Shown here: piece by piece, positions 61,882-64,000 of the stretch
Numbering within the stretch: position 1 is the stretch's first letter
How the letters are laid out: each line of letters begins with the position of its first letter
Source of the DNA: an uncultured Verrucomicrobiae bacterium
Lineage (GTDB): Bacteria > Verrucomicrobiota > Verrucomicrobiia > Chthoniobacterales > JAFAMB01
Assembly: GCA_963813025.1 (NCBI GenBank)
Contig: CAWEXO010000011.1
Location: 608,001-672,000 of the forward strand
Length of the DNA stretch: 64,000 nt
Direction of reading: 5' to 3'
Notes under the pieces: model-generated
What the model was told of the DNA's origin: nothing
Database searches by the model: none
The model's input: only the letters and a program-made list of their open reading frames with translations
Made by a program: the position numbers and the translations under genes

Positions 61882-63141
61882 TCACTCCGTCGCAATGTCG
61901 CGGCGGAAATAGCAGCAATCAAAATGGATTTTCGCAACCGTCTCGTAGGCCAATTGCGCAGCTTGCGACAATGAGGGTTTGATGGCGGTCACGCCCAGAA
62001 CTCGGCCGCCGGAGGTAACGATTCGCTCTCCTTCCTGCCGGGTGCCGGCGTGGAAGAGCATCACTTCGGGCACACCAGTCAAAGACTCCAGGCCGGCGAG
62101 CGGTTTACCGGTCTCGTACCGGGAGGGGTAACCGCCCGAAGCCATGACCACACAGACGCTGGCCTGGTCGCTCCACTTGGCGCTAACCTGGCCGAGCCGT
62201 CGGTCAATGGTCGCTTCCAGCAGATCGACTAAGTCCGATTCCAGTCGAGGAAGAAGGACTTGCGTTTCCGGATCTCCGAACCGTGCGTTGAACTCGAGAA
62301 CCTTGATGCCTTCCGAGGTGAGCATCAGTCCGGGAAACAGGAGACCCCGATAGTCGATTTTGTCTTCCTGAATTCCGCGAAGAAACGGTTTCAGAACGGA
62401 ACGTTCGATCTCTTCGAGCAGTTCCCTGTTTATGGAGCGGGACGGACTGAAGGCTCCCATCCCGCCGGTGTTCGGGCCTCGGTTCCCATCGTAGAGCTGC
62501 TTATGATCTTGGGCCGTAGGAAACAGCAAATAACTTTCCCCGTCGACCAGGGCGTGCACCGAGCACTCGGTGCCCGCCAGGAATTCCTCGACCACAATCC
62601 TTTTCCCCGCTTCGCCAAACCGCCCGCTCTCCATCATGTCCCGAATAACCGTTACCGCGCTTGTTCGATCCTCGGCGATGATTACGCCTTTACCGAGAGA
62701 TAATCCGTCTGCCTTGATCGCCACCGGGAAACCGAACCTTTCCAGGGCGCCGATAGCCGCTTGCGACGAGTCAAATGATGCGTAGCTGGCTGTCGGAATC
62801 CCATGACGGACCATGAACGCCTTGGCGAAACTCTTCGAAGATTCAAGCTGTGCGGCCAGTCGAGCGGGGCCGAAAATTCGCAGACTATTTTGCTGAAAAA
62901 GATCGACGACGCCGGCGGCTAGCGCATCGTCCGGTCCCACGACCGTGAGATCGATGCTTTGATCCTGGGCGAATTGGACCAGTGCGTCGAGATCGCGAAT
63001 GTTGATCGGCACGTTGCGGGCAATCCGGCCTGTTCCGGCGTTCCCCGGCGCCACAAAGACTTCGCTGACCCGTGGTGACTGATTGATTTTCCAAGCTAAC
63101 GCGTGCTCTCGACCGCCACTGCCCAGGATCAGAACTCTCAT
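61882..63141 (-). CDS. purD: Phosphoribosylamine-glycine ligase
   Basis: GSGGREHAL, APGNAG, GPNTGGMGA, EFNARFGDPE, TSGGRVL. Confidence 0.97.
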   Translation of the reverse strand: MRVLILGSGGREHALAWKINQSPRVSEVFVAPGNAGTGRIARNVPINIRDLDALVQFAQDQSIDLTVVGPDDALAAGVVDLFQQNSLRIFGPARLAAQLESSKSFAKAFMVRHGIPTASYASFDSSQAAIGALERFGFPVAIKADGLSLGKGVIIAEDRTSAVTVIRDMMESGRFGEAGKRIVVEEFLAGTECSVHALVDGESYLLFPTAQDHKQLYDGNRGPNTGGMGAFSPSRSINRELLEEIERSVLKPFLRGIQEDKIDYRGLLFPGLMLTSEGIKVLEFNARFGDPETQVLLPRLESDLVDLLEATIDRRLGQVSAKWSDQASVCVVMASGGYPSRYETGKPLAGLESLTGVPEVMLFHAGTRQEGERIVTSGGRVLGVTAIKPSLSQAAQLAYETVAKIHFDCCYFRRDIATE

Positions 63142-63315
63142 ATTAGCGGCTCGCAGGCGAAGCGCCGCTCACAGATTGAAAGCGACAGTGGGCGATAATG
63201 CATAGTGTCACTCGTCTTTTACCATTAGTTAGCTAGTTCCCCAGAACTCTGCGCGTTCTTTTTGCGGCAAGAAACACTGGATTGATTGCCTTGGGCATCT
63301 CGACGTAGAAAGTAG

Positions 63316-63495
63316 GCAGCAGTGGGTCGGCAGTTAAGACCGGTGTGGCATTGGAGCTTTATGCCCGATAGCTAGTTTGGTTCCGAGCGTTTTGGTTGTT
63401 GCATTAGCGAAGCTCCAGATCGGGTTGTTTGCCGATCTGGAGCTATCCTGTTTAGGAGATTTCTCTCTATCTACCAACTCGGGCCGATGCGCTGC
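63316..63495 (+). ncRNA. Candidate IS110 bridge/seek RNA
   Basis: Closing stems GCAGC/GCTGC and TCGGC/GCCGA; internal GGCAT/ATGCC and 13-bp AGCTCCAGATCGG/CCGATCTGGAGCT hairpins; TTGATT-N18-TAGAAA upstream. Confidence 0.55.
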
Positions 63496-63533
63496 AGTGT
63501 GAAAGCAAGAACAACATCTAACCCAAGAGAGGT

Positions 63534-64000
63534 ATGGCAAAGAAAACCACGACCAAGCGAAAGAACAAATCAAAAACTCACCGGAGTGTTCTGGAACGGA
63601 TCAATCTCAAGGCCGCAGGAATCGATATCGGGGCGAATTTTCACCTGGTGGCCATTCCCGAAGACCGCGGCTCAGAAACGGTGCGCAAGTTTGGCCCTTT
63701 TACGAGCGATCTGCAGCGGATGGCTGACTGGCTGAGCGAACACCACATTGAGACCGTAGTGATGGAATCAACGGGGGTTTATTGGATACCGGTGTTCCAG
63801 ATTCTGGAGCAGAGAGGGTTGGAGGTAAAATTGGTCAACGCAGCTCATGTCAAGAATCTGCCTGGACGCAAAAGCGACGTCTCGGACTGCCAATGGCTTC
63901 AACAACTCCACACCTTTGGTCTTTTAAACGGCTCGTTCCGACCCAAGGACGAGGTCTGCGTCTTGCGCAGCTTCCTGCGCCTGCGCGACACCTTGGTTAA
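63534..64000 (+). CDS. IS110 family transposase/recombinase, N-terminal DEDD domain (runs off the window; absent from the ORF track)
   Basis: Manual translation is open to the end: AAGIDIG, VVMESTGVYWIPV, LVNAAHVKNLPGRKSDVSDCQWLQQLH. Confidence 0.95.
   Translation, partial: MAKKTTTKRKNKSKTHRSVLERINLKAAGIDIGANFHLVAIPEDRGSETVRKFGPFTSDLQRMADWLSEHHIETVVMESTGVYWIPVFQILEQRGLEVKLVNAAHVKNLPGRKSDVSDCQWLQQLHTFGLLNGSFRPKDEVCVLRSFLRLRDTLV

Follow-up and report, generated by a model that had tools for sequence, protein, structure and literature searches.

Guide covariation suggests that an IS110 element of a Verrucomicrobiae bacterium reads its ends in the form of a single folded DNA strand

Introduction

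The window, as the whole stretch of 64,000 nucleotides analysed here will be called, ends inside an IS110 element whose recombinase gene lies behind a long, highly structured leader. The question raised by this locus is whether the leader encodes a bridge RNA and in which form such an RNA would meet the DNA of the element's own ends. The element is a member of the IS110 family. In IS621, according to the accessible text of PMC11208158, the donor guides bind opposite strands of an opened 14-bp duplex, 7 nt to the left and 5 nt to the right of the core. An initial annotation had proposed an IS110 recombinase guided by a bridge RNA from its own leader, and this is now backed by RNA structure and by covariation of the guides with DNA. 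A bridge RNA by itself is of an already known kind, and the novelty lies in the proposed donor, since the patterns found among relatives suggest that the window element recognises its ends in the form of a single folded strand of DNA and not as a normal double helix. A bridge RNA together with a fold-back single-strand donor, in an active IS110 element of an ISPpu9-like clade, is quite probably the best explanation overall. No IS110 donor read as a folded strand was found in the literature searched, figures, preprint supplements and most subscription papers aside. The features discussed are collected in Table 1.

Table 1. Features of the element and its leader (window coordinates; mini-elements in genome coordinates)
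Feature	Position	Strand	Remark
Left flank TAGCT, candidate target of guide B	63230..63234	+	Outside the element in the simple model; covaries with guide B
AG core, read as CT on the antisense strand; second copy at right end	63235..63236	+	Junctions of insertion units, tandem junctions
First 7 nt of left end, putative equivalent of the 7-nt donor arm	63237..63243	+	First two bases probably read by handshake
Left-end DNA hairpin, GAAC/GTTC plus A63243-T63259	63244..63258		Starts at nt 8; family hairpin flush with the 6-mer
Distal donor 6-mer (candidate)	63259..63264	+	Same sense as guide C; 5/6 in window copy
Displaced sub-terminal inverted repeat AAGAAAC	63269..63275	+	Complementary to right-end GTTTCTT
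Predicted internal sigma-70-like promoter TTGATT-N18-TAGAAA	63282..63311	+	Conserved in close relatives; fails strict scan
Predicted bridge RNA of about 178 nt with closing stem and two loops (target, donor)	63319..63496	+	Folding, covariation
Guide A, 5' side of target loop	63343..63351	+	Weak complementarity to right flank
Guide B (TAGCT) + core (AG) + handshake (TT)	63369..63377	+	Covariation with junction
Guide C (TTGTTG + CA), 5' side of donor loop	63396..63403	+	Match to distal 6-mer
13-bp hairpin, length-variable tip of donor loop inner stem	63411..63444	+	Not a guide
Guide D (TTAGG + AG)	63452..63458	+	Identical to last 7 nt of element; 77/81 loci
IS110 recombinase gene, 5' part	63534..64000	+	463 aa in all; D31, E78, D115, D118, S349
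115-122-bp mini-elements	G000:C13:343107-343228; C14:104508-104751; C14:36986-37220

Element Ends, Core and Copies

The window element is multi-copy, with 13 copies in the genome, twelve at 98.9% identity or above and one at 88%. The left flank differs between copies while the element stays constant. Retrieval of the right end and of the other copies, advised by the initial annotation, showed AG at both the left and the right junction in 15/15 insertion units, and in tandem junctions one AG is common to the right end and the left end; with AG at all junctions and a single AG in tandems, the core is AG and the element starts at 63237. Beyond this short core no ordinary duplication of the target is seen. 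The left junction had been placed near 63230, which is displaced from this true start. The element is 1692 nt long with the right AG included, and its right end lies about 930 nt past the end of the window, directly after the recombinase stop codon. The seven bases ending in the left AG were TAGCTAG in 10 of the 15 insertion units, TAACTAG in two and other sequences in three, and the right flank was nearly free, with C as its first base in 8/15. At two sites (G000:C13:326054 and C14:331246) the element sits at the same point of another repeated element, which has an element-free third copy, and the same flank follows a mini-element in genome G035 (L237).

The gene to the left of the element (61882-63141) is presumably purD-like. 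An empty site for the window copy was sought in G001, where the intergenic stretch is not conserved; the interval from the purD-like gene to the next gene there measures about 90 nt and is unrelated to window positions 63150-63229 and to the roughly 300 nt that follow the element. Neither a circle junction nor an empty site turned up in the contigs from four DNA runs, which are informative neither way.

Four left junctions (G000:C9:180483, C9:95551, C11:436303 and C11:492914) carry 4 bases (CTAG) more than expected from the element-free paralogous repeats, on the left side only. These insertions lie in repeated sequences that read TAGCTAG when filled and TAG or AAG in the element-free paralogues. 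For the two TAACTAG sites the empty paralogue gave no extra bases, and one locus (L149) has a single extra base, which also perfects the guide match. The 4 extra bases at four insertions indicate that the real target in this sub-clade may be short, perhaps no longer than (C)TAG, and that part of the junction that matches the guide may arrive with the element; these bases perhaps stem from slippage, since the guide overlaps itself, and up to 4 bases of 63230..63234 may have been brought in by insertion.

Recombinase

An intact DEDD recombinase start had been annotated, and the ATG at 63534 indeed opens a frame that runs to the window end and encodes 463 aa in the genome. The protein matched PF01548 (DEDD RuvC-like, 72 bits), PF02371 (Transposase_20, 30 bits) and NCBIfam NF033542 (247 versus a cut-off of 140). 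D31, E78, D115 and D118 are invariant in 70/70 homologues; S349 (alignment A2), which stands before the invariant G350, is Ser in 34/70 and Thr in 36/70 and is presumed catalytic by position. The AlphaFold model (pLDDT 87.6) found its best structural matches in IS621 and ISCro4 (16% identity, Foldseek E 4e-11). Among named homologues, the closest share 79-88% identity and come from Verrucomicrobiae assemblies, and those at 44-58% from cyanobacteria, delta- and betaproteobacteria and others.

Leader RNA and Promoter

The comparison set was drawn from 223 loci, which gave 188 leaders, 126 after dereplication (62/188 being near-duplicates) and 119 parsed (7/126 unparsed); 19 were without a full left window, a further 13/90 were left out for want of a located repeat or a firm junction, and 5/77 were absent from the tree. 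The window leader (63315-63533) folds better than 200/200 shuffles (z −3.59). RNAalifold on 43 leaders placed a closing stem round two hairpins, each with a large internal loop, with two-sided changes in 25/32 pairs of the consensus fold and 91.5% paired cells, versus 75.5% in shuffles and 29-49% when slid. The upstream region of about 180 nt described earlier as closed by long-range stems was thereby upheld, its structure covarying across these 43 homologous leaders. The perfect 13-bp hairpin also noted there is present (63411-63423/63432-63444) and is down to a few pairs in many homologues. An Rfam search of the leader gave no family, with three chance-level matches far below the cut-off. 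The free RNA fold buries the guides (−83.0 versus −62.8 kcal/mol).

The promoter-like boxes were likewise found where they had been reported, TTGATT at 63282-87 and TAGAAA at 63306-11, 18 nt apart. A scan with a strict promoter consensus returned 0 sites, and TTGATY-N16-18-TA.... was the best site in all 15 close relatives listed, just before the stem; the promoter score exceeded its shuffle mean in 46/68 loci. Transcription from this internal promoter would probably yield the bridge RNA as the 5' part of the message for the recombinase, that is, as its leader.

Target Recognition

The 9-mer TAGCTAGTT stands both at 63230-38 and at 63369-77, as the initial annotation had stated with the reserve that it could have arisen by chance. 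Some exact 9-mer repeat appeared in 13.5% of 5000 shuffles of the 319-nt stretch, so the match is weak alone and gains its significance from the other copies and from covariation. Guide B agreed with the left flank in at least 4/5 bases at 87/100 loci (permutation mean 13, max 26) and for 48/58 distinct guides (mean 5.8, max 14). The two bases after AG equalled the element's first two at 73/90 loci (18.7 by permutation) and in 46/59 after dereplication (11.6 by permutation), and this handshake was followed in 13 independent pairs by 11 for and 1 against. The covariation that had been proposed as the test of the guide is thus far above permutation, and the 9-mer is read as a target guide, AG core and handshake, all of which covary with the junction across homologues. 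Guide A gave a lower signal against the right flank (115/280 versus 70; at least 4/5 bases in 10/56), and the base 5' of guide B was rejected as an eighth guide base (7 versus 9 of 59). Guide B equals a donor guide of the family in 23/119 leaders.

At the other end, guide D repeats the last 7 nt of the element at 77/81 loci (23.3 by permutation), with 8/12 distinct guides matching (0.8 by permutation). With the core read as CT on the antisense strand, guides B and D are the equivalents of the IS621 right guides. It is very improbable that the leader is a translational control structure only and that the matches are chance or phylogenetic artefact: such a role would accord with the frequency of 9-mer repeats in shuffles and with the ISPpu9 leader, which represses translation according to the accessible text of PMC12288879 and PMC8450116, whereas the covariation of guide B, handshake and guide D stays far above permutation, also when dereplicated, and that of guide B and the handshake is found in independent pairs as well.

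Putative Donor Recognition by Guide C

Several partners of guide C were rejected. It did not match the element's first bases in six registers (n = 56), it gave no signal against the reverse strand of the left end (202 versus 200) or against the right end, and no partner was found for it within the RNA itself. Nor did the donor-loop handshake covary (14 versus 14.7 of 56). Against the sense strand of the left end at free offset, the score was 240 versus 202.5 ± 4.4. The site matched is a 6-mer that lies some 23-30 nt in from the left end, between the DNA hairpin and the displaced inverted repeat. In the test of this pair, anchored on the motif GRAAC and covering 39 distinct guides from 77/90 loci, 172/234 bases agreed when the gap to the inverted repeat was fixed at 6 nt, versus 92.3 ± 6.7 by permutation (max 117), and other gaps gave 55-89. 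Matches of 5-6/6 were obtained for 26/39 distinct guides (2.8 expected) and at 59/77 loci, and the match is 6/6 in the genome's mini-element and in the 88% copy. The 6-mer was rejected as a complement of the 7-nt lead (128/450 versus 134).

In 23 independent pairs from a 72-protein tree, the cognate DNA was better in 16, worse in 1 and tied in 6, with shifted controls at 1:5 and 8:5. Between close pairs the DNA follows single-base changes in guide C, which argues that the match is actively maintained. The held-out AG-core homologues scored 6/6, 4/6 and 5/6, with another 6/6 by eye. Ten AA-core homologues showed no match at gap 6 (19/60 versus 18.8) and a weak one over gaps 6-8 (35 versus 29.3 ± 2.1), some of their junctions being mis-set; by eye, they retain the hairpin and the repeat. 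In the held-out set, 1/12 plasmid loci was without a leader and 4/12 viral loci were left out; three other loci were unparsed and one was unplaced.

Left-End Hairpin, Inverted Repeat and Mini-Elements

The DNA hairpin starting at nt 8 is a family feature, with 217/300 pairs versus 103 in 75 left ends; at least 3/4 of the hairpin pairs form in 49/75 with a 7-nt lead and in 61/75 with a lead of 6 or 7, and the median folding z is −2.2 versus +0.4 for downstream DNA (n = 70). The window copy itself forms 4-5 bp with a z of −0.14, which is no better than shuffles, and a rival hairpin wins there. The inverted repeat measures 7-9 bp, its right copy being sub-terminal and its left copy 30-40 nt inside. 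Its flanks covary between both ends (40/57 versus 23.2), the central 5 bp of the repeats having served to find the ends. Covarying inverted repeats are equally expected if the protein binds them in duplex DNA.

Five mini-elements of 115-122 bp with the element's ends occur in the genome, some in tandem. Inside them lies a short TTAGACCGG segment resembling the beginning of the target loop, which is reminiscent of the Ssr9 RNA of MITEPpu9. Two related genomes contain five still shorter mini-elements of 57-59 bp, composed of a 40-nt head, 4-7 nt and a 12-nt tail and placed after target-like 7-mers. Immediately past the AAGAAAC repeat the mini-elements cease to resemble the left end, and those without the RNA gene retain the distal 6-mer. 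In the 57-59-bp units the two repeats pair with one another, and some of these units carry changes that match between the repeats. Circles of 57-59 bp are implausible as duplex DNA, given the stiffness of DNA.

These observations bear on an ordinary duplex bridge recombination with a three-guide RNA, in which the donor would be read by guide D, the handshake and contacts of the protein with the inverted repeat, and guide C and the 6-mer would track each other through regulatory or decoy pairing (an antisense RNA like the ISPpu9 Asr9) or through duplication ancestry. This is held to be improbable. Recognition of half the donor is enough for IS621 (available parts of 10.64898/2026.08.31.748434), ISPpu9 circles form despite a mutated hairpin (PMC12288879, accessible text), antisense and decoy RNAs are described in ISPpu9 (PMC12288879 and PMC8450116, likewise), and the guide C signal is weak in the AA-core group; the single-base changes of guide C followed by the DNA in close pairs, the fixed spacing to the inverted repeat together with the 7-nt lead, and the retention of the 6-mer in mini-elements without the RNA gene all speak against it.

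A Proposed Fold-Back Donor

Guides C and D both carry the sense-strand sequence and would therefore both bind the antisense strand, some 30 nt apart; a single strand folded back on itself, or an extruded cruciform, is accordingly the likeliest form of the donor. If the geometry of the IS621-like protein is kept, as the fold match suggests, the antisense strand must turn back between the two guides. The antisense strand of the joined ends would fold with the inverted-repeat stem on one side and the hairpin on the other, leaving between these stems a mismatched bubble, its sides about 14 and 12 nt long, which would mimic the opened 14-bp donor of IS621, with 7 + 2 + 5 nt on the cut side and, facing it, 12 nt without a core. 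The complex of recombinase and RNA would cleave the antisense strand after CT before joining it to the target; as the facing side has no proper core, only one strand would be transferred, and replication or repair would finish the insertion, in a copy-out, single-strand paste-in manner. Either a single-stranded circle or a supercoiled duplex that extrudes a hairpin could give rise to the fold. One-strand transfer from such a folded strand or extruded cruciform is, on balance, judged probable from these sequence features, and it fits the single-strand excision reported for IS621 and the top-strand-only insertion reported for CazIS110 (10.64898/2026.08.31.748434 and 10.1101/2025.10.25.684509, in the parts available).

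Folding carried no strand bias, the sense strand being better at 33/57 junctions and the antisense strand at 22, with wobbles at 4 versus 7. This would suit a mechanism in which guide C pairs with the 6-mer on duplex DNA at another step, holding the left end in excision or in direct transfer, while the inserting donor is a duplex circle read by half a loop and the hairpin only loops out the spacer. Circle-free direct transfer in CazIS110 (10.1101/2025.10.25.684509, available part) and the extra left-junction bases, which suggest separately formed junctions, lend this mechanism further weight; it leaves unexplained the mobile units of 57-59 bp and the IS621-like dimensions of the bubble, and the ISPpu9 data in the accessible text of PMC12288879 point to a hairpin dispensable for excision, not for insertion. 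It is considered unlikely, if less so than the three-guide duplex scheme. The same ISPpu9 source reports correct minicircles by PCR from point mutants of the A-box inverted repeat, its authors leaving open a role of the hairpin in efficiency or integration, and CazIS110 prefers duplex donors (10.1101/2025.10.25.684509, available part).

A more far-reaching form of the fold-back donor, to which less than even weight is given, is that a whole, widespread branch moves obligately as a folded single strand, its RNA-guided donor site arising solely through the folding of one strand into a pseudo-duplex in the manner of attC, with one strand inserted and 57-59-nt dumbbell circles as its minimal form. 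This branch would take in relatives from Verrucomicrobia, cyanobacteria, delta- and betaproteobacteria and Bacteroidetes and, probably, ISPpu9. The inverted repeats of IS1111 might serve in the same folding role.

Comparison with Known Systems

The comparisons in this section follow the accessible parts of the sources cited. The nearest studied element is ISPpu9 of Pseudomonas putida, an apparent relative by architecture and by protein motifs compared by eye, the tree row that contains ISPpu9 showing the same motifs as the window recombinase. Both have an AG core, a hairpin about 7 nt from the core within a 43-nt left A box (PMC12288879), a short right B box and an internal promoter, roughly 84 nt in from the left end, and a long structured leader accompanied, as with MITEPpu9, by tandem mini-elements with the same ends (PMC12288879; PMC8450116). 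ISPpu9 differs in being described as without inverted repeats, in that guides are not mapped there and in targeting REPs (PMC12288879; PMC8450116); in our own reading, its printed A and B boxes contain a complementary CAAACA/TGTTTG pair placed like the window repeat (PMC12288879).

With IS621 and ISCro4 the element shares the fold of a DEDD recombinase, with a presumed catalytic Ser, a left-end leader RNA with target and donor loops as two internal loops (PMC11208160; PMC11208158), a target loop matching both strands (guide A weakly), a two-base core, a target-loop handshake that reads the donor and a 7-nt donor arm (PMC11208158; PMC13626964). It departs from them in its core, AG in gene orientation where IS621 has CT, and in the reversed order of the guides (PMC11208160). 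Opposite-strand donor guides at the core were not found, the 5' donor guide matching a distal site on the same strand instead. A closing stem surrounds both loops, the promoter is internal and not formed at the junction, the donor-loop handshake is without covariation, and the protein is about 140 aa longer. The earlier impression that the RNA fold differs from IS621 thus holds for the closing stem, along with differences in the AG core, internal promoter and donor DNA, while the guide loops turned out to be IS621-like.

As in IS1111, the top-strand guide precedes the bottom-strand guide, and a sub-terminal repeat lies 3 nt from the core on the right with a 7-nt lead on the left (PMC11187229). 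In contrast to the 11-13-bp repeats of IS1111, 7 and 3 nt from the ends, the window repeat is 7-9 bp long with its left copy displaced behind the hairpin and the 6-mer, and the RNA lies upstream of the gene and not downstream (PMC11187229). The work on CazIS110-1 and on half-matched IS621 donors resembles the proposal in single-strand excision and one-strand insertion and differs in its ordinary donor sites (10.1101/2025.10.25.684509; 10.64898/2026.08.31.748434). Integron attC sites are likewise used as a folded single strand, by a tyrosine recombinase without RNA. ISPpu10 also has DNA structure as a layer of specificity, with the stem-loop in the target, beside the guide match. The readable files of the Durrant supplements contained no DNA motif of this element's family; the Durrant tree includes related proteins, the nearest named rows being ISAzo22/ISCARN20 and ISPpu9/ISPsy35/ISWpi13, and no paper on ISCARN20 or ISAzo22 was found in the literature searched.

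A 2026 preprint, in its available part, treats single- versus double-stranded IS110 intermediates as an open question. The guides themselves appear here to demand a folded strand, which offers a sharp and cheap test, also in ISPpu9 with its unexplained left-end hairpin. The donor windows of a recent survey measured 25 nt, as far as its accessible text describes, and would mostly miss the distal site; this would explain why the donor guides of this clade escape pipelines limited to 25 nt round the core. The possible failure of orthologues tested with a 14-bp duplex donor would be explained as well. If true, the proposal would provide a bridge recombinase for single-stranded donors that needs about 52 nt of cis sequence.

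Targets of Relatives

Among the relatives, eleven loci (L027, L030, L032, L035, L038, L161, L169, L043, L102, L096 and L095) have a target guide equal to the right end of sister elements and lie directly behind such an end, as IS110s piggy-backing on other IS110s. At L010 (1136-2900), L214, L230 and L249 the element now targets the right end of its own family and stands in tandem arrays with mini-elements of 57 and 120 bp; the donor guide of the L010 group matches the tail of the mini-elements and not its own tail. The AA-core sister group (L255-L263, L268 and L269, on proteobacterial plasmids and viral contigs) has a run of A as its guide, and most of its members are inserted at AAAAAA runs, perhaps a frameshift site, in genes that we take to be of the IS3 family from their appearance. 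The cyanobacterial loci L018, L020, L024, L026, L029, L031, L040, L072, L162, L172 and L192 all lie behind a shared TGCAAG-containing repeat, and the guides of the cyanobacterial homologues track the variants of this repeat.
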